In this document: in pieces, positions 2,638-45,096 of the stretch
How the letters are laid out: every line of letters begins with the position of its first letter
How positions within the stretch are numbered: position 1 is the stretch's first letter
DNA from: a bacterium
GTDB taxonomy: Bacteria; Ratteibacteria; UBA8468; B48-G9; DTJG01
DNA: 64,000 nucleotides
Assembly: GCA_021800535.1 (NCBI GenBank)
Contig: JAJYYV010000001.1
Coordinates: 84,641 to 148,640 of the forward strand
Reading direction: 5' to 3'
The notes under the pieces: generated by a model
The model's input: only the letters and a program-made list of their open reading frames with translations
Database searches by the model: none
Told to the model about the DNA's origin: nothing
Position numbers and translations under genes: made by a program

Positions 2638-3567
2638 ATGCTAAAATGTAGACAAACCTGGAAAAATTATATTTATACTCTAATTCTTATGTTTTATTAT
2701 TATATCCCTCTGCCATCCTATATTAAAAAATATCTGAAGCGTACAATAAAATCAAAATTTGCCTATAATTATGCAGATATAGTCAAAAATAAAAATTTAA
2801 ATTTACCTATATTTAATAATAAACGCTTTTTATCTGCAAAATATTTTTGTCCTGTTTGTAATTCTATTCAGCCCCATTTTTTACCTTTACCCGATTATTA
2901 TAGAAAACAAAGTGAAAAATATGGATTTGTTCATTTTGGTAAATCTGAAATGACGTCTCTTGATACATATTTATGCCCTTTATGTAAAGCATCTGATAGA
3001 GAACGTTTAATGGCTTTTTGGATTATTAATAATTTGGGGTCTCAAATCTTTTTAGATACACACATTATACATTTTGCTCCTGAAAAGTCCCTTTCTGCTA
3101 TGCTTAAACAGTTAAAATTACTTAATTATAAAACCGCAGATTTTGTTATGCAAGAGGTTGATTTCAAAGTTGATATAACCAAACTTCCATTTTCAGATGA
3201 TTCTTATGATTTTTTTATATGTTCACATATTCTGGAACATGTAATAAATGATGATAAAGCAATAGAAGAACTTTATAGAATTCTAAAACCTGGAGGAAAT
3301 GGAATAATATTAACCCCCATTTCAACAGTAATTAAATCTACAATTGAAGATACTGCAATAAATACCGAAGAAGATAGATGGAAATATTTTGGCCAGAATG
3401 ACCATGTCAGACTTTATTCTCATAATGACTTTGTTATGAAAATAAAACAACATGGATTTATTTTATATGAACTTGGAATAGAGCATTTTGGTAATGAAGT
3501 GTTTTTTCAGCTGGGACTTAAAAAAACCAGTATTTTATATATAGTGGAAAAGCGCAAAAAATTATGA
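2638..3567 (+). CDS. SAM-dependent methyltransferase (Methyltransf_11-like) with an N-terminal CxxC...CxxC zinc ribbon
   Basis: CPVCNS...CPLCKAS cysteine pairs at the N-terminus; FICSHILEHV...LKPGGNGIIL methyltransferase motifs. Confidence 0.65.
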   Translation: MLKCRQTWKNYIYTLILMFYYYIPLPSYIKKYLKRTIKSKFAYNYADIVKNKNLNLPIFNNKRFLSAKYFCPVCNSIQPHFLPLPDYYRKQSEKYGFVHFGKSEMTSLDTYLCPLCKASDRERLMAFWIINNLGSQIFLDTHIIHFAPEKSLSAMLKQLKLLNYKTADFVMQEVDFKVDITKLPFSDDSYDFFICSHILEHVINDDKAIEELYRILKPGGNGIILTPISTVIKSTIEDTAINTEEDRWKYFGQNDHVRLYSHNDFVMKIKQHGFILYELGIEHFGNEVFFQLGLKKTSILYIVEKRKKL

Positions 3568-3725
3568 ATCTTAGTCGGGAACAAGGCCCGGTAATGATAA
3601 CTAAACGGGGACAACCTGTAGATATTATCAGAGGAATAAAAAAAGAAGACCCTGCAGATAATAAGCACTCCTAAAAAATTTTTATTTTTTTACATTTTAA
3701 TGTATACTCTAATTTATATAAAAAA

Positions 3726-6431
3726 ATGGATGAAATAAAAATTTCTATTAATGGAAATGAAATAAAATGCAGACCTGATAGCACAGTCTTTAATGTATGT
3801 AAACAACAAGAAATTGAAATTCCTTCATTGTGCTATCATCCCGAGCTTTCTATCACCGGGGCATGCAGGCTATGTCTTGTAGATATAGAAGGCAAAGGAA
3901 TTACAACATCCTGCACTGAATTTGTCAGAGAAGGAATGAAAGTGGTAACCAGCACAAAGGATGTTATAAATGCAAGAAAAGTTATCTTAAATCTTTTGCT
4001 TTCAGACCATCCCTATGACTGTATGACATGTGAAAAAAGTGGTGATTGCCTTTTGGAAAAATATGCATACGAATATGGTATAAAAAAATCTATTTATAAA
4101 GACTATCATAAATACCAAAAATCCCAGATACAAATAAAAGAAAAAGATGGAACCCCTTTTGTTATAAGGGATTACGAAAAGTGTATATTGTGTGGAAGAT
4201 GCGGTAAAGTCTGTGAAGAGGTAGTAGGAGCCAAAGCACTTGCTGTTGGATATAGAGGGGTTAACTCTCAGGTTATATCCGGTCTTGATGGACCCTTAAA
4301 AAACACAGATTGTGTTTTTTGCGGAAACTGTATAGAAGTATGTCCTGTAGGTGCCTTAAGAGAAATCCAGGCTGAAAAAAAGGGTAGAACCTGGGAATTT
4401 AAAAAAGTTTATAGTGTATGTCCGTATTGCGGTGCAGGTTGTAGTACAGAAGTCTTTGTAAAAGACAATAAAATTGTAAAAATTTCCGGAATGGAAAATG
4501 GTCCTTCCAATAGAGGGTGGCTTTGTGTAAAAGGAAAATTTGCCTTTGATTATGTAAGCAGTCCAGACAGGCTGAAAAAACCTCTCTTAAAGAATAAAAA
4601 GAGTGAGTTTGAAGAAATTGAATGGGATACTGCGCTAAATATAATATTTGAAAATTTTTCTGAACTTAAGAAGAAATATGGTCCTGATTCTATTACAGGA
4701 TTGGGTTCTGCAAGGGCGCCCAATGAGGAAAACTATCTTTTTCAGAAATTTTTCCGGCAGATTATAAAAACAAATAATGTTGACCACTGTGCCAGACTCT
4801 GTCATTCTGCGACAGTTGCCGGGCTATATCATTCATTGGGAACCGCGGGCATGAGTATTTCCCTGGATGAATTAGAGAACATTTCTGATTGTATACTCGT
4901 AACCGGAACAAATCCTACAGAGGCGCAGCCTATTACCTCATATAGAATAGAAAAAGCAGTAAGGCGCGGTGCAAAGCTTATTGTCATTGATCCAAGAAGA
5001 ACTAAACTTGCAGATAAAGCAGACATATACATCCAGCCAAAACCAGGGACAGATGTAATACTTTATAATGCCATTGCAAAAATTATTCTTGATGAAAATC
5101 TCCATAATGAAAAATTTATCAAAGAAAGGGTTGAAGGATTTGAAGAGTATAAAAAATTCATGGAGACGTTTTCTCTTAAAGAGGCGGAAAGGGTAACAGG
5201 TGTTCCCACAGAGAATTTAAGAAAGGTAGCCCTTATTTATACCAGTGCTACATCTGCAGCTATCCTCTGGGCACTGGGAATTACAGAATATGTATGCGGG
5301 ACACATAATGTTTTAACCCTTGCAAACCTTGCTCTTATTACCGGCCAGATTGGAAAACCCGGGGCAGGACCTGCTCCTTTGAGAGGGCAGAACAATGTCC
5401 AGGGTGCCTGTGATATGGGTGCGCTGTACGATTTTTATCCTGGGTACCAAAGACCCGATGCTCCTGAAACTATTAAAAAATTTGAATCCTTGTGGGGAGA
5501 AACAGGATTATCAATGAAAACAGGACTCAGTGTACTTGAGTCCTTTGGAGCAGCTTACGAAGGAAAAATAAAGGGAATGTATATAATGGGCGGTGATTTT
5601 TTAGTTACATGCCCTGATACCAATTATTTGGCAAAAGCTCTTGAAAATTTGGAATTTTTTGTTGTTCAGGATATATTTTTAACAGAAACAGCACAGTATG
5701 CGGATTTGATTCTTCCTGCAGCATGTTCCTATGAAAAAGAGGGAACATTTACAAACACAGAAAGGCGTGTTCAGCCAGCTTTCAAATGTGTTGAGCCACC
5801 GGGAGAAGCAAAAGCTGATTGGGAAATTCTTACCCTGCTGGCTAATAAATTTGGATATAAATGGGACTATAAAAATGTATGGGATATAACCAAAGAAATA
5901 AATAAATGTATACCCTCCTATGCAGGAATAACACCACAACGACTCTTTAAAGGAGAAAGATTGCAATGGCCATGTCCTGATGAAAAACATCCCGGAACTC
6001 CGACACTGCATGTTGGTTCATTTAAAATAGGTAAGGGAAAACTTTCATGCTTACCATACCAGGAGCCTTATGAACTTCCTTCCCCCCAATATCCTTATGT
6101 CCTGACTACTGGACGGATTCTTTCAGAATATCACCTTAGAAGTATGACAGGAAGAACTGATGGGATAAAGGAAATAACAGGTGAGCCCTTTTGTTTCATA
6201 AATCCTAAGGATGCAGAAAAATTAAAAATAGAAGAAGGGGGGCATCTTGAAATTTCCACAAAGCGTGGCAAACTGGTTCTTTCTGCAAAAATAAGTCCTG
6301 ATATTCAGGAAAATATAGTATATCTTCCACTACATTTTGGAGCAAACATACTGACACACCGCAGGATAGACCCGATTGCCAAAATTCCCGAATACAAGTT
6401 TTGCGCCTGTAATATTAAAAAATCAGAATGA
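3726..6431 (+). CDS. fdhA: Formate dehydrogenase alpha subunit (molybdopterin/tungstopterin oxidoreductase), Cys-type, with a NuoG-like 2Fe-2S/4Fe-4S N-terminal extension
   Basis: N-terminal 2Fe-2S Cys pattern; HPYDCMTCEKSGDC; two CxxCxxCxxxCP ferredoxin motifs; CPYCGAGC for the MopB Fe-S cluster; active-site stretch NNVDHCARLCHSATVAGL resembles FdhF around Sec140 but has Cys in that position. Confidence 0.85.
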   Translation: MDEIKISINGNEIKCRPDSTVFNVCKQQEIEIPSLCYHPELSITGACRLCLVDIEGKGITTSCTEFVREGMKVVTSTKDVINARKVILNLLLSDHPYDCMTCEKSGDCLLEKYAYEYGIKKSIYKDYHKYQKSQIQIKEKDGTPFVIRDYEKCILCGRCGKVCEEVVGAKALAVGYRGVNSQVISGLDGPLKNTDCVFCGNCIEVCPVGALREIQAEKKGRTWEFKKVYSVCPYCGAGCSTEVFVKDNKIVKISGMENGPSNRGWLCVKGKFAFDYVSSPDRLKKPLLKNKKSEFEEIEWDTALNIIFENFSELKKKYGPDSITGLGSARAPNEENYLFQKFFRQIIKTNNVDHCARLCHSATVAGLYHSLGTAGMSISLDELENISDCILVTGTNPTEAQPITSYRIEKAVRRGAKLIVIDPRRTKLADKADIYIQPKPGTDVILYNAIAKIILDENLHNEKFIKERVEGFEEYKKFMETFSLKEAERVTGVPTENLRKVALIYTSATSAAILWALGITEYVCGTHNVLTLANLALITGQIGKPGAGPAPLRGQNNVQGACDMGALYDFYPGYQRPDAPETIKKFESLWGETGLSMKTGLSVLESFGAAYEGKIKGMYIMGGDFLVTCPDTNYLAKALENLEFFVVQDIFLTETAQYADLILPAACSYEKEGTFTNTERRVQPAFKCVEPPGEAKADWEILTLLANKFGYKWDYKNVWDITKEINKCIPSYAGITPQRLFKGERLQWPCPDEKHPGTPTLHVGSFKIGKGKLSCLPYQEPYELPSPQYPYVLTTGRILSEYHLRSMTGRTDGIKEITGEPFCFINPKDAEKLKIEEGGHLEISTKRGKLVLSAKISPDIQENIVYLPLHFGANILTHRRIDPIAKIPEYKFCACNIKKSE

Positions 6432-7042
6432 ACTGTATTTTACTGGCAAAAGGAGAAAAAAGTTTAAGGCTTGGCAAAATAAAACCTTTTATTTTGTTTC
6501 ATGAAAAACCATTAATAGAAATAATTCTGGAAAAAACAACAGAACTCTTTGAAAATATTTATATTGTAACAACAAAAAAAGAAAAATTTAAAATGTATGA
6601 AAATGAAAAAGTGTTTTTAATAGAAGACAATATAAAGTGTGGACCTCTTGGAGGAATTTTACTCGGGCTTAAACATTCCAATTCTTACTATAATTTTGTT
6701 TTACCTATAGACCTGTTATTTATCAATAATAATCTTCTTAAATATATGGAAGAAAAAAAGAAAGATTATGATATCCTTTATGTAAAAACGAAAGATTTTA
6801 TACAACCCCTGTGTGGCATTTATTCTAAAAAAGTTTTAAAATATATAGAACAAAATATTAAAAAAGGCCAGTATAAAGTAAAATCTATTTTACAATCTGA
6901 AAGATTTAATATAAAAATCATTACAGAAAAAGAAATAGAAAAATTTGGAAATCCCATGGATATGTTTTTTAATTTAAATACCAAAGAAGACCTAAATTGG
7001 TTAAAGGAGATAGAAAATGGTATCACTTCAGGAAGCAATTAA
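6428..7042 (+). CDS. mobA: Molybdenum cofactor guanylyltransferase MobA-like
   Basis: The N-terminal ILLAKGEKSLRLG matches the MobA LAGGxSxRMG motif; 204 aa; 4-nt overlap with fdh (ATGA). Confidence 0.7.
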   Translation: MNCILLAKGEKSLRLGKIKPFILFHEKPLIEIILEKTTELFENIYIVTTKKEKFKMYENEKVFLIEDNIKCGPLGGILLGLKHSNSYYNFVLPIDLLFINNNLLKYMEEKKKDYDILYVKTKDFIQPLCGIYSKKVLKYIEQNIKKGQYKVKSILQSERFNIKIITEKEIEKFGNPMDMFFNLNTKEDLNWLKEIENGITSGSN

Positions 7043-8249
7043 ATTGGTCAGTGAAAAATCAAAACCATTATCTATAGAAAAATCTGACATTATAGAATCC
7101 TTGCATAAAGTTTTGGCAGAAGATATAAAAGCCGGGTTTAACATCCCTTCTTTTGACAGGGCTGCAATGGACGGTTATGCTATTTATTCTCAAAATACCA
7201 TAAACGCCTCAAAGCAATCTCCTGTAATTTTAGAAGTCAAAGGAGAAATAAAGGCAGGGGATACAAAAATACCAAAATTACAAAAAGGCACTGCTATTTC
7301 TATAATGACAGGAGCGCCTCTTCCCATTGGATGTGATTGTGTAATAAATAAAGAATTAGTTAAACCTCAAGAAGAAAAAATAAAAATTTTTATGCCTGTA
7401 GAATCCGGAAGAAATATCGCCTATACAGCAGAAGATGTTAAAAAAGGACAAACAATTATTAAAAAAGGAACACTGATAGACTCTTGTGTTTTTTCAATGC
7501 TTGCCTATCTTGGAAAATCAAAAGTAAAAGTTTATAAAAAACCTGTTGTTGCTATTTTATCCACAGGAAATGAGATAAAAAAGCCCGGACAGCCGCTTTC
7601 CAAATATTCAGTGTATGACTCCAATACCTACACATTTTATTCTTTAACATTAAAAAATGGTGGAATCCCTAAAATTCTGGGTATTGCCAGTGATGAACAC
7701 GCATCTCTGGATAAATTTATTAAAAAAGGTCTGGGCCATGATATACTTCTTCTTTCCGGAGGTATAAGCGCAGGTAAATATGATTGGGTAGCTGATGTTC
7801 TTATGAAAAATGGAGTAAAAATGATTTTTTGGAAAATAGCCATGAAACCAGGCAAACCCATCTTTTTTGGAATAAAAGGAAAAACACTGGTTTTTGGGCT
7901 GGGTGGCTATCCACTTGCCGCCTATATAGGATTTTTAACTATTGTAAAACCTGCCTTACAAAAAATTTCAGGAATTCAACATGATACAGATATAACAATT
8001 CCTGCATATTTTAAAGGTAATATTGAAAATAAAACAGATAAAGACAATGTAATTTTGGTTAAATTAATTGAAGAAAAAGATAAAATCACAGCTATACCTT
8101 CTGTCCAGGAAGATAGCTGTCCCTCGCATTATTCTCAAAGATCAAGTCTTCTAAGTCTTACTTTAAAATCCAATGGTTTATTTTTTTTAAAAAAGGGGGA
8201 AACCAAAAAAGAAGGAGATATTATCCTGGTTCATCTTTTAGAAAAATAA
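7017..8249 (+). CDS. moeA: Molybdopterin molybdotransferase MoeA
   Basis: FDRAAMDGYAI signature; 410 aa; GGxS motif LLSGGISAG. Confidence 0.85.
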   Translation: MVSLQEAIKLVSEKSKPLSIEKSDIIESLHKVLAEDIKAGFNIPSFDRAAMDGYAIYSQNTINASKQSPVILEVKGEIKAGDTKIPKLQKGTAISIMTGAPLPIGCDCVINKELVKPQEEKIKIFMPVESGRNIAYTAEDVKKGQTIIKKGTLIDSCVFSMLAYLGKSKVKVYKKPVVAILSTGNEIKKPGQPLSKYSVYDSNTYTFYSLTLKNGGIPKILGIASDEHASLDKFIKKGLGHDILLLSGGISAGKYDWVADVLMKNGVKMIFWKIAMKPGKPIFFGIKGKTLVFGLGGYPLAAYIGFLTIVKPALQKISGIQHDTDITIPAYFKGNIENKTDKDNVILVKLIEEKDKITAIPSVQEDSCPSHYSQRSSLLSLTLKSNGLFFLKKGETKKEGDIILVHLLEK

Positions 8250-8271
8250 CAAATAAAACAAGGGGGAAAAA

Positions 8272-9966
8272 ATGTTAAGTGATTTAGAGATTGCCCAAAA
8301 AGCAAAAATAAAACATATAAAGGAAATAGCAGAAAAATCAGGAATTGATGAAAAATATTTGGAACTCTATGGAAATTATAAGGCAAAAGTCAGGACAGAT
8401 ATTCTGGAAACACTTAAGGATAAACCTGATGGCAAATATATAGACATAACTGCCATAACCCCTACACCACTTGGTGAAGGTAAAACTGTTACAACAATAG
8501 GTCTTTCACAGTCCATAGGCCAGATTGGAAAAAAAGTCTTTACATGCATCAGGCAACCTTCTTTAGGCCCTGTGTTTGGTATAAAAGGTGGAGCTGCAGG
8601 AGGTGGATATTCCCAGGTAATCCCTATGGAGGATTTTAATCTTCACTTAACCGGGGATGTTCATGCTGTAGGAATTGCCCATAATCTGCTCTCTGCGTTT
8701 GTAGATAATTGTGCATTAAAGAAAAGAGAGCTAAATATTAATCCCGGTTCTATCACATGGAGAAGAGTTCTTGATGTTTCTGACAGATTTTTAAGGAACA
8801 TAGTAATTGGTCTTGGAGGACCGGAAAATGGTTTTCCCAGAGAAACAGGATTTGATATTACTGTTGCTTCAGAAGTAATGGCAATACTTGCTCTGGCAAC
8901 AGACCTAAAAGATTTAAGGAAAAGACTTTCAAAGATGATTGTTGCGGAAACTTATGATGGTAAACCTATAACAGCAGAAGATATAAAAGGAACCGGAGCA
9001 ATGGCTGTTTTGTTAAAAGACACCATAAATCCAAATCTTATGCAAACCCTTGAATATACCCCTGTATTTGTTCATGCAGGACCTTTTGCCAATATTGCAC
9101 ATGGAAATAATTCAATCATTGCTGATAAAATAGCTCTTAAACTTGCTGACTATGTTGTCACAGAAAGCGGATTTGGTGCAGATTGCGGTATGGAAAAGTT
9201 TATGGATATAAAATGCAGAACAAGCGGTTTAAAACCTGACTGCGTTGTAATAGTGTGTTCTATAAGAGCTTTAAAGATGCATAGTGGAAAATTCAGAATT
9301 GTTCCTGGCAAACCTCTTGATAAAGGACTTACACAGGAAAATATTCAGGCAATAAAAGAAGGAGGAGTAAACCTTGAAAAACAGATAGAAAATGCCAAAT
9401 TATTTGGTATTCCTGTGGTGGTCGCTGTAAATAAGTTCACCACAGACACAGAAAAAGAAATAGAAACAGTAAAAGAAATAGCCCTAAATGCAGGAGCTGA
9501 TGATGTTGCAACAAGTCAGGTATGGGAAAATGGCGGTAAAGGCGGAATAGAACTTGCAGAAAAGGTTGTCCGGGCCTGCGATAAACCAAAGAATTTTAAA
9601 TTTCTCTATGAAACAGACTGGCCCATTAAGAAAAAAATAGAAACAATCGCAACAAAGGTATATGGTGCTGGAAAAGTCCAGTATTTGCCTTTGGCAGAAT
9701 TAAAAATTAAAAGATATACAAGATGGGGATATGATAAAATGCCTATATGTATGGCAAAAACACATCTTTCTCTTTCTCATGACCCTGAATTAAAAGGAAG
9801 ACCCCAGGGTTTTACACTTCCAATCAGGGATATCAGGATTTCAGCCGGTGCCGGATTTTTATATCCTCTATGCGGAGAAATGAAAACAATGCCTGGACTT
9901 CCTTCTGAACCGGCAGGCAATAATATGGATATAGATGATGAAGGCAAAGTAGTCGGTTTATTCTAA
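8272..9966 (+). CDS. fhs: Formate--tetrahydrofolate ligase
   Basis: PTPLGEGKTVTTIGL FTHFS signature; 564 aa. Confidence 0.9.
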   Translation: MLSDLEIAQKAKIKHIKEIAEKSGIDEKYLELYGNYKAKVRTDILETLKDKPDGKYIDITAITPTPLGEGKTVTTIGLSQSIGQIGKKVFTCIRQPSLGPVFGIKGGAAGGGYSQVIPMEDFNLHLTGDVHAVGIAHNLLSAFVDNCALKKRELNINPGSITWRRVLDVSDRFLRNIVIGLGGPENGFPRETGFDITVASEVMAILALATDLKDLRKRLSKMIVAETYDGKPITAEDIKGTGAMAVLLKDTINPNLMQTLEYTPVFVHAGPFANIAHGNNSIIADKIALKLADYVVTESGFGADCGMEKFMDIKCRTSGLKPDCVVIVCSIRALKMHSGKFRIVPGKPLDKGLTQENIQAIKEGGVNLEKQIENAKLFGIPVVVAVNKFTTDTEKEIETVKEIALNAGADDVATSQVWENGGKGGIELAEKVVRACDKPKNFKFLYETDWPIKKKIETIATKVYGAGKVQYLPLAELKIKRYTRWGYDKMPICMAKTHLSLSHDPELKGRPQGFTLPIRDIRISAGAGFLYPLCGEMKTMPGLPSEPAGNNMDIDDEGKVVGLF

Positions 9967-10029: not shown

Positions 10030-10818
10030 ATGAGATTAAAATTTTTTATAATTACAGGTATACTTTTTAGTATCTTGTTTAATCCAGCATTAGTAAGAGC
10101 TGAAAATTTAAGAATTTTTGCTGCTGATGCTTTACCAAAACCCATTGAAGAAATTGGGCATTTATTTGAAAAAAGTCACCCTGGTATCACCATATATTAT
10201 AGCTTTTTAGGTTCAGGAATTCTAAAAGGGGACATCCAGCAAGGCGCTCCCTGTGATATTTTTTTATGCGCTAATAGAAAATTTCAAAGACAGCTAAAAA
10301 AAACAGGCTTTATAAACAATTATAAAATTTTTGCTTATGATTATCTTGCATTAGCAACCCCTTTTAATAATCCGGGCAATGTCAATTACGCAAATATGAT
10401 TCAGAAATTAATGGATAAAAATATCTCTCTTACCACTTCAACACCACATGCAGACCCTGCTGGAGACTATACATGGAAAATGTTTAAATTAATAAATAAA
10501 AAATACCCAGGAGCATTCAAAAAAATAGTTTCACATGCAAACCATTTGCTTGATGCAGCGCTTATAATTCCTGTTCTTGTAAATAACGACACAGATATAG
10601 GAATTTTATATACCTCTCAGATTCTTGAGGTGGAAAGACAGGGAACAAAACTGAATATGATTCCTATTCCGGCAAAATACAATACAAAAGCTAAGTTTAC
10701 AGCTTCAATTTTAAAAACCTCTAAGCATAAAAAGATTGCTAAACAATTTATAAATTTTTTATTTTCCCCTAAAGGAAAACAAATTTTAAAATTCTGGGGA
10801 TTTACTCCTGTAAAATAA
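10030..10818 (+). CDS. modA: Molybdate/tungstate ABC transporter periplasmic substrate-binding protein (ModA family)
   Basis: Signal peptide followed by LRIFAADAL, matching the ModA LxVFAAASL consensus; 262 aa; lies next to molybdoenzyme and Moco genes. Confidence 0.7.
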   Translation: MRLKFFIITGILFSILFNPALVRAENLRIFAADALPKPIEEIGHLFEKSHPGITIYYSFLGSGILKGDIQQGAPCDIFLCANRKFQRQLKKTGFINNYKIFAYDYLALATPFNNPGNVNYANMIQKLMDKNISLTTSTPHADPAGDYTWKMFKLINKKYPGAFKKIVSHANHLLDAALIIPVLVNNDTDIGILYTSQILEVERQGTKLNMIPIPAKYNTKAKFTASILKTSKHKKIAKQFINFLFSPKGKQILKFWGFTPVK

Positions 10819-10825
10819 TATCTAT

Positions 10826-11638
10826 ATGTTTTCTATAAAAAAATTCAATCAGAATAAAATTTTTGATATAGTAATATTTATAATCCCGTGTATTTTTTTG
10901 ATATGTTTAATTTTATTTTTATCAGGAATTTTTTTCCAGACATCTTTTAGTATTTTTATAAAAGAAATTAAAAACATAAAACTGTGGAAGGCAATACTAT
11001 TAAGTTTTAAAATTTCTATTGTTGTTATACTGATTAATGTATTTATAGGAGTGCCTTTAAGTTATATCCTGTCCTTTAAAAAAAACAGGTTTTCTTTTTT
11101 ACTTGATGTGGTAAGTTCTTTACCCTTAACCTTATCCCCCCTTATTATTGGTTTTGCCGTTTTAATAACAGCAGGGCCATTAAATCCTATAGGAAAATTT
11201 TTCATAAACCATGGAATAAAATTTGTTTTTACTCCCCTGGGAATAATAGTTGTTCAGGTTATAATTTCTTTTCCATTTTTTGTAAACATTCTTAAAGAAT
11301 CTTTTGATTCTATAAATAGAAAAATGCTGAATTTAAGTAAAACACTTGGGGCATCATCCTTTGATATACTTTTTAAGATAATATTACCTGTTTCTTTCAA
11401 TGCTTTGCTGGCAGGTATATCAATGAGCTGGTCAAGGTCTATGGGAGAATTTGCCGCAACCCAGATGGTTTCTGGTGTAATACCAAACATTACAGAAACA
11501 GCACCAATATCAATTTTTATTAAAGCCTCTTATGGAAATTATCCTTATGCAATTGCAATTTCATCTATTTTAATTGTAGTATCTTTTATTTCCCTGGGGT
11601 TTTTTAAATTTTTTTCCTATAAATCCAAACAAAATTAA
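10826..11638 (+). CDS. modB: Molybdate/tungstate ABC transporter permease (ModB family)
   Basis: Six-TM permease with the EAA-type loop SKTLGASSFDILFKIILPV. Confidence 0.7.
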   Translation: MFSIKKFNQNKIFDIVIFIIPCIFLICLILFLSGIFFQTSFSIFIKEIKNIKLWKAILLSFKISIVVILINVFIGVPLSYILSFKKNRFSFLLDVVSSLPLTLSPLIIGFAVLITAGPLNPIGKFFINHGIKFVFTPLGIIVVQVIISFPFFVNILKESFDSINRKMLNLSKTLGASSFDILFKIILPVSFNALLAGISMSWSRSMGEFAATQMVSGVIPNITETAPISIFIKASYGNYPYAIAISSILIVVSFISLGFFKFFSYKSKQN

Positions 11639-11706
11639 ACTAATAATGATAAATGTAATTCATCCATATTCTTTGGGGTAATAAAAAAATATGTTAGAAT
11701 ATTTCT

Positions 11707-11874
11707 ATGAAAACCCGTGAAGATATTTTAAAAATTTTATCTATGGAAAAACCAGCATTGGAAAAGCAATTTAAATTGAAACAAATTGCACTTGTCATCT
11801 GCAAGGTAAAATTCACCCAGGGTTGCAAAGTAAAATCCACCCACTCCAAAGACATTTACAGGTGTTATTAAATG
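11707..11874 (+). pseudogene. Truncated minimal nucleotidyltransferase (MNT) remnant
   Basis: Translation MKTREDILKILSMEKPALEKQFKLKQIAL matches MNT N-termini and stops before the GS..D.D catalytic motif; the ORF runs into the direct repeats. Confidence 0.4.
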
Positions 11875-11900
11875 TAATTGCAAGGTAAAAATAGACCACC
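11800..11900. repeat. Three imperfect about 20-bp direct repeats: TGCAAGGTAAAATTCACCCA / TTGCAAAGTAAAATCCACCCA / TTGCAAGGTAAAAATAGACCACC
   Basis: Copies read directly at 11800-11819, 11823-11843 and 11878-11900; local GC is higher than the surroundings. Confidence 0.6.
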
Positions 11901-12005
11901 TGTAGAGGTTTACATAAGAAAAAAATGCACGCTATTGACAAGGATTTAATGTTCATATAACATAAACATAAAGTTTATAAATCGTAAACTTATTGTTTTT
12001 AAGGC

Positions 12006-12551
12006 ATGAATATGAAAAATATATTTTCAACTGAAGAAAGGATTAAAATCCTCAGGAGTATTGTTTTCAGAACAGGTCCCATAAGTGTTAATGCAACAGC
12101 TATTAATCTCAAACTAAGTAAAGGGCTTATCTCCATATATTTCAACATTCTTGTAAAAGAAGGTATACTGAAAAGAAGCAAAAACAAGTTTATAATGTTA
12201 GACTCTCCTTTAGTGAAAGGAATTAAGATCCTTCTGAACATAGAAAGTTTTCCTTCCAAGATATTCAGGAAATTTCCTTTTGTCGTTTCAGCAGGCTTGT
12301 ATGGCAGTTCTATCAAAGGGGAAAATATAGAGGATTCAGATACAGATATCTGGATAAAAGTTAAAGATGTAGAAGAAGGGAAATTAGCAAGTCTATCATC
12401 CCAATTAAACAAAAAAATCAAGCATGCAAAAATCCTATTCTTGACTGAGAAGAAAATAAAGGAATTACAAAAAGAAGATGAAATGTTTTATCATTCCCTG
12501 ACCTTTGGTTCTATAATCATATACGGAGAAAAAAATGGTATTCAAATATGA
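12006..12551 (+). CDS. wHTH-nucleotidyltransferase (Pol-beta superfamily MNT-like) protein
   Basis: N-terminal winged-helix-like segment; catalytic GLYGSSIKGENIEDSDTDIWI (GS..x..DxD). Confidence 0.6.
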   Translation: MNMKNIFSTEERIKILRSIVFRTGPISVNATAINLKLSKGLISIYFNILVKEGILKRSKNKFIMLDSPLVKGIKILLNIESFPSKIFRKFPFVVSAGLYGSSIKGENIEDSDTDIWIKVKDVEEGKLASLSSQLNKKIKHAKILFLTEKKIKELQKEDEMFYHSLTFGSIIIYGEKNGIQI

Positions 12552-12903
12552 AGACTGTATCAAAAAAGGCTTGCCGAGAAAAATTCTCAAGGACCTTAAT
12601 GACGCATTTGGTACAGACTTTACAGATGATGATAAAGTGTTTTTAAGCAGAGTTAAAGATAATCTATTGGGAAATAAAGATTTAGTTAATAGAATGGAAT
12701 CTAATTCTAAGGAAAATGTAAAAGCTATTTTTGATAAATATTTCAATCAGGAAATGACAAAACTTCTCAATAGCAATATGAAATTTTATAAAAGGTTGGT
12801 AGATAATGAAAAATTAAAAACTCGGCTTAAATCTGCATTATTTGATTTGTTATATCTTGAATTTAATAAAAAACTCATTAAACCCTTAATTTGGTGGGAA
12901 TAA
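12535..12903 (+). CDS. Hypothetical protein overlapping the NTase gene by 17 nt (possible cognate partner)
   Basis: 122 aa, helical, no His and no Rx4-6H motif, so not a canonical HEPN domain; translationally coupled to the NTase. Confidence 0.4.
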   Translation: MVFKYEDCIKKGLPRKILKDLNDAFGTDFTDDDKVFLSRVKDNLLGNKDLVNRMESNSKENVKAIFDKYFNQEMTKLLNSNMKFYKRLVDNEKLKTRLKSALFDLLYLEFNKKLIKPLIWWE

Positions 12904-12919
12904 TATTATCTAAGGAATT

Positions 12920-13915
12920 ATGAAAAAACAAGAATTTAAAAAAGGTGAAATAATTATTTACCAAAATCCACAAGGGTTTGAAATTCAAGTGAAACTTGAA
13001 CAAGATTCTGTATGGTTAAATTCTCATCTTATTGCTAAACTTTTTAATGTTAACAGACCTGCGATTGTTAAGCATATCAATAATATTTATAAAGCCGGGG
13101 AATTAGATAAAAAATTAACCTGTTCTGTTTTGGAACAGGTTGCTGCTGATGAAAAGATACGCAAAATGAATCTTTATAACCTGGATATGATTATTTCTGT
13201 TGGTTACCGTGTTAATTCCAAACAAGCCACTCAATTTCGCATTTGGGCAACCAAAATTTTAAAAGAACATTTAGTTAAAGGATACACTCTTAATGATAAA
13301 CGCCTTTTGCAATTCCAAATTCATCTTAAAGAACTACAAGAAGCAATTTCGTTTTTACAGGAAAAATCTAAATATAAATTGCTTGCAGGACAGGAGCAGG
13401 AAATTTTATACCTTCTTTCTAACTACTCAAAAACACTAACGCTTTTAGAACAATATGACAAGGAAAAATTATCCCTGATTAAAAAAACAAAAGGAAAATT
13501 TATCTTGAAATATGATGAAACAAAAAAAATTATTGATGAGATTAAAAAAGAATTAATTGCTAAAAAAGAAGCCAGTGAACTTTTTGGGCAGGAAAATAAC
13601 AATAAGTTTAAAGGGATATTAGGAAATATTTATCAAACTTTTGGCAATAAGGAACTATACTCATCACTTGAAGAAAAAGCAGCTCATCTTTTATATTTTG
13701 GAATTAAAGACCATCCCTTTGTGGATGGGAACAAACGAATCTCTTCTTTTTTATTTATCTATTTTTTAGATAGGAATAATTATCTGTATAAATATAGCGG
13801 AGAAAAGAAAATTAATGATAATGCTTTAACATCATTGGCACTTTTAATAGCCATAAGCAATCCTGATGAAAAAAATAAACTTATTAAAATTATTACTAAT
13901 TTGTTAATAACTTGA
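12920..13915 (+). CDS. RhuM-like N-terminal domain fused to a Fic/Doc domain
   Basis: N-terminus matches the RhuM family (YQNPQGFEIQV...NLDMIISVGYRVNSKQATQFRIWATKILKEHLVKGY); the C-terminal Fic motif is HPFVDGNKRISSF. Confidence 0.75.
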   Translation: MKKQEFKKGEIIIYQNPQGFEIQVKLEQDSVWLNSHLIAKLFNVNRPAIVKHINNIYKAGELDKKLTCSVLEQVAADEKIRKMNLYNLDMIISVGYRVNSKQATQFRIWATKILKEHLVKGYTLNDKRLLQFQIHLKELQEAISFLQEKSKYKLLAGQEQEILYLLSNYSKTLTLLEQYDKEKLSLIKKTKGKFILKYDETKKIIDEIKKELIAKKEASELFGQENNNKFKGILGNIYQTFGNKELYSSLEEKAAHLLYFGIKDHPFVDGNKRISSFLFIYFLDRNNYLYKYSGEKKINDNALTSLALLIAISNPDEKNKLIKIITNLLIT

Positions 13916-13930
13916 ATCTTTATTTTCAAA

Positions 13931-14683
13931 ATGTCCCTGACAATTCTTAAATGTAAAAATATCCATAAAAGTTTTTATAGCAGAAATATTGAAAAAAAGG
14001 TTCTGGATGGAGTTGATTTTGAAATAAACCAGGGAGAAATTTCTTCTATATTTGGTTATTCTGGCGCAGGCAAAACCACTCTTCTTTCTATTATCGCAGG
14101 TGTTATAAAACAGGATAAAGGAAATATTATTTTTCAGGGGGAAAATATAGATAACTTAGAACCATTTGAAAGACATATTTCGCTTGTAATGGATGAACCT
14201 TTATTATTCCCCAGAATGAATGTTGAAAAAAATATTGCTTTTGGAATGAAACTTTTAAGAAATAAATCAGAAAATACCTATCAAAATATTGAAAAACATA
14301 TCAAGGAACTCATGGAAATGCTTGATATAACCGGGATAGAAAAACGTATGCCAGATGAAATAAGTATGGGACAGGCTCAAAGGGTAAGTATAGCAAGAGC
14401 CCTTGCTATAAAGCCTAAAATTCTTTTAATGGATGAACCCTTTTCCAATCTTGATATTGTATCTAAAAACAGAATTAGAAATTTACTTAAAACAATTCAA
14501 CTAAAAATAAACATCACAATTCTTTTGGTAACACATGATATAGATGATATTATAAATCTTTCCGATACATTATTTATTCTTAAAAATGGTAAAATTTACC
14601 AACAGGGAAATCCTAAAAATATACTAAAGGATTTAAATATGGAACAGATAGATAAACTTTTAAAAGACCAGGATAAAGATTAA
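13931..14683 (+). CDS. ABC transporter ATP-binding protein, probably the ModC-type ATPase partner of modAB (no TOBE domain)
   Basis: Walker A GYSGAGKTT, signature SMGQAQRVSIARAL, Walker B LLMDEPFSNLD; position is downstream of modAB but separated from it by the island. Confidence 0.6.
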   Translation: MSLTILKCKNIHKSFYSRNIEKKVLDGVDFEINQGEISSIFGYSGAGKTTLLSIIAGVIKQDKGNIIFQGENIDNLEPFERHISLVMDEPLLFPRMNVEKNIAFGMKLLRNKSENTYQNIEKHIKELMEMLDITGIEKRMPDEISMGQAQRVSIARALAIKPKILLMDEPFSNLDIVSKNRIRNLLKTIQLKINITILLVTHDIDDIINLSDTLFILKNGKIYQQGNPKNILKDLNMEQIDKLLKDQDKD

Positions 14684-45024: not shown

Positions 45025-45096
45025 TGCCGGGGGGCAGAATCGAACTGCCCACGCCAGCCTTTTCAGGGCTGCGCTCTACCACTGAGCTACCCCGGC
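45025..45096 (-). tRNA. tRNA-Phe (anticodon GAA)
   Basis: Reverse complement reads GCCGGGGTAGCTCAGTGGTAGAGCGCAGCCCTGAAAAGGCTGGCGTGGGCAGTTCGATTCTGCCCCCCGGCA: 7-bp acceptor stem, D arm GCTC/GAGC, anticodon loop CTGAAAA, T loop TTCGATT; CCA is not encoded. Confidence 0.9.

Follow-up and report, generated by a model that had tools for sequence, protein, structure and literature searches.

Probable mosaic of defense-gene remnants between modB and modC of a bacterial molybdate/tungstate transporter operon

We analyzed a 64-kb stretch of bacterial DNA (the window; contig JAJYYV010000001.1 of assembly GCA_021800535.1) in which modA and modB, the genes for the binding protein and the permease of a molybdate/tungstate ABC transporter, are parted from the gene of an ABC ATPase, modC, by a spacer of 2,292 bp (the island; Table 1). 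The island holds a gene for a winged helix-turn-helix (wHTH) nucleotidyltransferase (NTase), a 122-aa open reading frame (ORF) that overlaps it, a gene for a RhuM-Fic fusion and, at its left end, a 54-aa ORF and three direct repeats. The ORFs noted earlier, the three 20-nt repeats and the motif HPFVDGNKR were all confirmed at their coordinates. An earlier interpretation made without database searches (the sequence-only reading) had taken this arrangement for a mobile addiction or defense island captured inside an operon. We find that the operon is real and interrupted, and that the genes within it tell a different story.

A scan of one genome per species gave 24 ModB relatives (66-75% identity), the named ones being Candidatus Acididesulfobacter or Acidulodesulfobacterium metagenome-assembled genomes (MAGs), and 23 of these relatives cover both modB and the ATPase gene. 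An orthologue of the ATPase (55-61% identity) lies directly 3' of modB in 23 out of 23, with spacers of 8-321 bp, and modA orthologues (60-69% identical) adjoin modB in the relatives that cover modA, upstream and on the same strand except in one case (L028). None of the genes that intervene in the window is conserved in any of the 23 relatives, and blastn and tblastn did not find the island sequence in their loci. The longer modB-modC spacers among them (L014, L034, and others) consist of AT-rich non-coding sequence only, with no island remnants. Since the ATPase is orthologous and pairs with modB, the sequence-only reading was right to join it to modAB, and on the strength of this gene order we take the three genes to form a single transporter operon that a lineage-specific insert has interrupted. 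A ModABC-type importer is thus encoded with its binding protein, permease, and ATPase together, parted in the window only by the insert. On the NCBIfam equivalog models, ModA scores above its cut-off while ModB (157.7 vs a cut-off of 182.6) and ModC (169 vs 285) score below theirs, and the scores do not separate molybdate from tungstate specificity. Upstream of modAB lie fdhA (molybdopterin formate dehydrogenase), mobA, moeA, and fhs (window positions 3726-9966), a neighborhood that fits a molybdenum/tungsten uptake system.

The mobility proposed for the island was not supported. Pfam and NCBIfam searches returned no integrase or transposase domains, we found no meaningful flanking repeats that would mark a target duplication, and the sole tRNA gene in the window (45025-45096) is ~31 kb away. 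Nor does the composition deviate: the GC content of the island, 28.5% vs 31.9 ± 2.8%, is unremarkable, and the tetranucleotide distance lies within range.

The 122-aa ORF had been read as the partner of the NTase in a non-canonical MNT pairing, given that it lacks the Rx4-6H motif of HEPN toxins. The motif is indeed missing, as the ORF encodes no histidine at all. We rejected a HEPN or KNTase_C identity of this ORF, which had no support in Pfam, NCBIfam, or PDB. Its homologues are 65-88% identical and align only from residue ~17 on. The name 'type I restriction enzyme R subunit' is given by one source to both the window protein (P0001) and a homologue (P0003), and in Methanobacterium formicicum the homologue (P0010) forms the end of a fragmented hsdR, which runs from HSDR_N/ResIII through SWI2_SNF2 and a T1R_D3-like piece to P0010. 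By tblastn, residues 17-112 map to the final ~95 residues of annotated plasmid HsdR genes, including a 995-aa HsdR of a B. thuringiensis plasmid (coding sequence 3304-6291; match at 6001-6285, E 3e-9). The beginning of the ORF has another source. HEPN proteins in other loci start with M(A/V/P)(F/Y)xYxxC(I/M)(E/K)(K/Q/E)GLL(R/K)(K/R)IPPS(K/Q)D, and the window ORF begins MVFKYEDCIKKGLPRKI. At the nucleotide level, 12535-12585 agrees with the HEPN gene of one such locus (L047) at 44 of 51 positions vs 15 of 51 for the hsdR tail, whereas the next 60 nt (12586-12645) agree with the hsdR tail at 51 positions vs 21 for the HEPN gene. The two sequences join at an AAAAT microhomology (12580-12585; shared codons AAA-AT(T/C/A)). 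When, in the reverse direction, intact proteins were searched by tblastn against the entire window, only two matches came up, namely the HEPN protein of L047 (aa 1-17 on 12535-12585, E 1e-4) and HsdR (aa 900-994 of 995 on 12583-12867). The Pfam HEPN domain begins at residue 26 of the true partners, past the 17 residues retained here.

The last ten residues of the ORF, KLIKPLIWWE, do not align to HsdR tails. DNA similarity to RhuM-Fic loci extends beyond the RhuM-Fic gene itself, from 12861-12877 to ~13931, and the upstream part of this extension encodes the end of a DNA methyltransferase, Mod (gene mod, distinct from modABC), full-length representatives of which end in DLDYKLIKPLIWWE. At this second join, hsdR and mod have AAA at 12868-12873 in common. 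We therefore read the 122-aa ORF as an in-frame fusion of a HEPN gene start, an hsdR tail, and a mod end, and not as a partner protein. The same three-part fusion was found in no other genome, and HEPN, hsdR/M/S, methyltransferase mod, and res sequences were not found elsewhere in the window. Compared with type I HsdR, the ~96 residues present here fall on the very C-terminal end of annotated HsdR proteins; the HSDR_N nuclease, the superfamily 2 (SF2) motor, hsdM, and hsdS are all missing, which makes this segment a gene remnant. A similar graveyard is seen on an archaeal contig (L039, 5154-10953), with an N6_Mtase fragment, a RhuM gene without Fic, a PD-(D/E)XK protein, and an HsdR C-terminal fragment (P0007), together with two wHTH-NTase and HEPN pairs, the second HEPN gene being split by a frameshift.

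In contrast to the HEPN gene, the NTase gene is intact. The protein matches Polbeta (E 8e-8) and NTP_transf_2 (E 8e-6), with a weak ArsR-type HTH at its N-terminus; nearly all of its 281 homologues are 179 aa long, and the family-invariant residues G98, S99, G103, S109, D110, and D112 (GS...DxD), which identify an MNT-fold nucleotidyltransferase, are all retained. Homology of the upstream region begins at ~11933, with 82% nucleotide identity to loci L047 and L048 and 68-75% to L049 and L050. A promoter scan predicts a sigma-70-like promoter there (TTGACA-17-TAACAT, 11935-11963), and two dyads, GTTCATATAACATAAAC (11951-11967) and GTTTATAAATCGTAAAC (11973-11989), share the form GTT(C/T)AT...AT(G/A)AAC, one of them overlapping the -10 element; these are presumably autoregulatory operators of the wHTH. 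In the three independent loci covered, a PF05168 HEPN gene comes directly after a 179-aa NTase gene and overlaps it by the same 17 nt (L047, 1499-2038 and 2022-2366; L049 and L050, 5001-5540 and from 5524). In type VII toxin-antitoxin systems, MNT is the antitoxin and MntA neutralizes HepT by adenylylation (PMC7641770). The window shares with the wHTH-NTase/PF05168-HEPN subtype of these systems the MNT core, the wHTH, the promoter/operator region, and the coupled downstream start, but here the HEPN gene breaks off after its 17th codon: only pre-domain codons remain, no HEPN protein with an Rx4-6H motif adjoins the NTase, and an orphan antitoxin takes the place of a toxin-antitoxin pair. The NTase thus looks like an MntA-like antitoxin-type enzyme whose gene is intact and whose toxin is gone. 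Keeping an antitoxin while losing the toxin is the harmless direction of decay. We found no solved structures related by sequence to the NTase or to RhuM-Fic.

The RhuM-Fic protein combines Virulence_RhuM (PF13310, E 2.5e-23) with Fic (PF02661, E 9e-11). It had been suspected to be Doc-like from the GNKR of its motif, which bears out: HPFVDGNKR fits HxFx[DN][AG]NKR, which we take to be the Doc-type definition, and TIGR01550 (DOC_P1) scores 43.2 bits vs a cut-off of 38.65. Its match to the PADLOC candidate family PDC-S23 (E 7.5e-117) runs from aa 8-329 on profile positions 4-323 of 327, so that the RhuM domain, the Doc-type Fic motif, and full-length collinearity are all present; PDC-S05 also matches the RhuM domain. 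No mention of PDC-S23 was found in the literature. The fusion itself is already known and not novel, 'virulence protein RhuM/Fic/DOC family protein' being a routine NCBI annotation. We confirmed 454 metagenomic relatives and kept 80 of them (66-80% identical), most of which align over ~aa 1-329 of 331. Their downstream neighbors (n = 67) include ResIII (23), SWI2_SNF2 (20), and DEAD (20) proteins, several of them full-length (976-995 aa); N6_N4_Mtase accounts for 10 of the upstream neighbors (n = 61), and RadC and type I subunits are also seen around RhuM-Fic. The best plasmid match sits in an hsdM-hsdS-RhuM/Fic/DOC-hsdR array. These neighbor counts indicate that the usual setting is mod-RhuM-Fic-res, a type III-like restriction-modification (R-M) operon. 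Consistent with this, the DNA similarity on the downstream side of the window gene, TTGAATCTTTATTTTCAAAA, corresponds to the starts of 936-995-aa res genes, ATGAAACTTTATCTTCAAAAC or ATGAA(A/T)CT(T/C)TAT(C/T)T(T/A)CAAAAC (MKLYLQN), and this res stub extends precisely to the A of the modC ATG.

RhuM/Fic/DOC fusions embedded in R-M operons have been described (Anantharaman et al. 2013, PMC3710099). The window gene has the same two-domain architecture, length, and Doc-type motif, and stubs of mod and res are still attached to it; it differs in that its R-M partners are gone, that it lies inside a metal-transporter operon, and that no antitoxin-like or immunity gene adjoins it. With P1 Doc, which is a kinase (PMC10728895), it has the Fic fold and the NKR variant of the motif in common, but its Fic domain is fused to a RhuM domain at the N-terminus, and no Phd-like gene, as in Phd-Doc, lies upstream. 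The same two domains occur in BifA of Streptococcus equi subsp. zooepidemicus, which is also encoded on a horizontally acquired island and has been studied as a host-cell effector (PMC6529018); such a role is implausible here, because the organism is an environmental bacterium of the acid-mine-drainage type. In two of the RhuM-Fic R-M operons (L094, 4787-5991; L103, 2750-4035), accessory genes are stacked between the methyltransferase gene mod and res, encoding a canonical Fic protein (HPFEDGNGR) and a 377-aa protein, with direct copies of the mod 3' tail on either side of them (39 nt at 82% identity in L094, 29 nt at 97% in L103). In a third (L117, 3287-3804), the stretch from RhuM-Fic to a canonical Fic gene contains a 13-codon res head fused to a mod tail of 150 aa.

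At the left end of the island, the truncated MNT fragment of the sequence-only reading was recovered in one respect only. The 54-aa ORF (11707-11871) has a single profile match, to PADLOC PDC-S09 (E 0.0015; aa 1-29 on profile positions 1-29 of 98), and its start is probably the stub of an MNT gene. Pfam (also at lenient thresholds), NCBIfam, PDB, and tblastn of all fetched loci added nothing, and HMMER against 1.84 billion representatives and a word-index search found nothing beyond the ORF itself. As for the repeats next to it, a pattern search allowing up to 3 mismatches recovered the first two copies vs 0.01 matches expected from shuffles. They have no Rfam match, no significant fold, and no protein similarity; no further copies occur in the window, in other organisms' loci, in IMG/VR, or in plasmids, and homologous NTase modules are without the three repeats. 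The 138-nt stretch that contains them (11795-11932) likewise showed no detectable relative. On these null searches we rejected the repeats as a known RNA, a CRISPR-like element, an operator, or a mobile-element end.

Table 1. Features of the transporter operon and its insert (positions in the window)
Feature	Position	Strand	Evidence or remark
modA, periplasmic molybdate/tungstate-binding protein	10030..10818	+	SBP_bac_11 E 2.3e-41; TIGR01256 modA 106.4 bits vs cut-off 62.5
modB, ABC permease	10826..11638	+	BPD_transp_1 E 9.5e-15; best NCBIfam matches Mo_ABC_porter and modB_ABC, both below cut-off
Probable MNT 5' stub, 29 codons	11707..11794	+	PADLOC PDC-S09; the 54-aa ORF extends beyond the homology to 11871
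Three 20-nt direct repeats	11800-11819, 11824-11843, 11879-11898	+	inside the 138-nt stretch 11795-11932
Predicted conserved promoter/operator of the wHTH-NTase module	11933..12011	+	upstream homology and promoter scan
wHTH-nucleotidyltransferase, 179 aa from second ATG	12012..12551 (first ATG 12006, 181 aa)	+	Polbeta, NTP_transf_2
122-aa mosaic ORF	12535-12903	+	overlaps NTase by 17 nt; no family match
Mosaic segment 1: HEPN (PF05168) toxin gene, first 17 codons	12535..12585	+	nucleotide match and tblastn
Mosaic segment 2: type I hsdR 3' tail, ~96 codons (codons 18-113)	12586..12870	+	homologues, tblastn
Mosaic segment 3: DNA methyltransferase (mod), last 10 codons, KLIKPLIWWE*	12871..12903	+	DNA homology to RhuM-Fic loci
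RhuM-Fic/Doc gene, intact, 331 aa	12920..13915	+	PADLOC PDC-S23, Pfam, DOC_P1
res (ResIII helicase), first 6 codons, ATG mutated to TTG	13912..13930	+	match to res gene starts
modC, cognate ABC ATPase, nucleotide-binding domain only, 250 aa	13931..14683	+	ABC_tran E 7.6e-34

In addition, we observed several differences between the transporter region of this genome and those of its relatives. The ModC proteins of the relatives are 381-431 aa long and carry a C-terminal extension vs 250 aa here, with homology ceasing near residue 233, and in the window cca starts 5 nt past the modC stop codon; together, the short ModC and the nearby cca suggest a second rearrangement that trimmed the 3' end of modC. 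A match to fhs or cca within ~7 kb of modABC was seen in none of the 23 relatives, so the neighborhood of the transporter operon differs in this genome. In one Candidatus Acididesulfobacter MAG (L015, 3823-6973), 3.2 kb with two opposite-strand genes (408 aa and 361 aa) lie between modA and modB, which suggests that, within the clade, insertions have entered intergenic junctions of the operon at least twice. The source MAG is labeled 'Candidatus Omnitrophica bacterium' in NCBI, and its closest ModABC relatives are those of Candidatus Acididesulfobacter/Acidulodesulfobacterium; the label may be unreliable.

Overall, we consider it probable that the island is a compacted mosaic of horizontally acquired defense-gene fragments and not a working two-module toxin island. 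The identities of the segments, the positions of the joins (at short A-rich microhomologies for the two within the 122-aa ORF), and the lack of the island in 23 relatives are direct observations. We propose that a donor region in which a wHTH-NTase/HEPN (type VII-like) pair stood together with a type I R-M system and with a mod-RhuM-Fic-res operon would have been inserted or recombined into the modB-modC spacer, and that later deletions at short microhomologies would have removed HEPN, hsdR, the methyltransferase gene mod, and res, which are genes that are toxic or costly without their partners. The harmless antitoxin-type NTase and the self-contained RhuM-Fic would have been spared, and the native leader of modC would have been replaced by the res stub. 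Since all pieces run in the same direction as the operon and the prediction for 11500-14100 shows no terminator on the + strand, modC is probably still expressed, by read-through from the transporter promoter, from the NTase promoter, or from both. Both nucleotidyltransferase-type modules appear to have lost their toxin genes, and nothing looks addictive except possibly RhuM-Fic. This protein would be the only candidate effector: its Doc-type motif predicts that, like P1 Doc, it modifies a translation factor in the manner of a kinase, and its usual position in R-M operons predicts a back-up role in abortive defense.

It is important to point out several observations that weigh against this proposal. 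An intact ancestral locus (NTase-HEPN...hsdR...mod-RhuM-Fic-res) was not recovered, which leaves the number of events, their order, and their place (this genome or a donor) as inferences. The contigs with the closest HsdR-tail homologues are short. One candidate ancestor, L140 (NTase-HEPN-RadC-hsdM-hsdS-hsdR), was rejected, as its HsdR tail is unrelated to that of the window. At the left end, the MNT stub has weak support, and the searches gave no explanation for the repeats. The nearest island-free relatives have a ModB of only 66-75% identity and so do not date the insertion. In addition, both joins of the 122-aa ORF are in frame and its coupled start is kept, so a retained function is possible.

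How RhuM-Fic arrived could also be told differently. The mod-res junction of one type III-like R-M family may be a cassette-exchange site at which accessory toxin genes (RhuM-Fic, canonical Fic, and others) are swapped or stacked by recombination via the conserved mod 3' tail and res 5' head, with the window gene, to which both stubs are still attached, as such a cassette that landed outside an R-M operon, a proposal that we regard as unlikely. We rejected a site-specific cassette boundary for RhuM-Fic, because the mod tails vary from 9 to 150 codons and the res heads from 6 to 13 codons; these variable stub lengths favor ordinary recombination between R-M operons, and deletion. Alternatively, the 122-aa ORF might have been retained, either as translated filler that averts transcriptional polarity on RhuM-Fic and modC, by holding ribosomes on the mRNA from the NTase to RhuM-Fic, or as a neo-functionalized HsdR-tail adaptor. 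The two in-frame joins and the coupled start in the 17-nt overlap fit such a role, as does the spacing downstream, with 16 nt from the stop of the ORF to RhuM-Fic and 15 nt from the RhuM-Fic stop to modC. Against this, two in-frame joins are expected by chance in about one case in nine, and the fusion is not found in any other genome. Sequence variation on which to test purifying selection is likewise missing: ~20 metagenomic contigs and two MAGs with an identical ModB or ATPase all carry the island, with 100% identity across 4.7 kb, so these conspecific sequences represent one population without polymorphism, hold no information on selection, and make a dN/dS analysis of the island impossible. 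We think it improbable that the ORF was kept for a function.

The last two alternatives are very improbable. That the island genes are ancestral to the clade is in keeping with a GC content and tetranucleotide usage that are not outliers, and with flanking synteny in the window that differs from that of the relatives, yet it would need a loss in all 23 relatives, which span several species-level lineages, and the content consists of truncated R-M and toxin-antitoxin pieces whose closest relatives (65-88% identity) are from unrelated taxa such as Methanobacterium and DPANN-like archaea. An active small addiction/defense island, in which the MNT and its partner would be a non-canonical toxin-antitoxin pair beside a separate toxin of the Fic type, is suggested by the ORF layout, the 17-nt overlap, the intact NTase, and the full-length match of RhuM-Fic to a defense-candidate family, but the histidine-free 'partner' without Rx4-6H holds only 17 pre-HEPN residues and its other ~105 come from HsdR and Mod tails.

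In summary, every component of the island belongs to a known family, the locus is fairly ordinary, and the understanding of these systems is unchanged; the missing HEPN motif in the 122-aa ORF, in particular, gives no evidence for a new toxin class. Our findings do carry a caution for annotation, in that a clean overlapping pair of an NTase and a small partner can be three unrelated gene ends fused together behind the enzyme. They also provide a well-resolved case of defense-locus decay, in which toxins and restriction subunits were lost and an antitoxin-type enzyme and a Fic/Doc effector were kept, and they indicate that the operon of an essential-metal transporter can tolerate a co-oriented insert of 2.3 kb.

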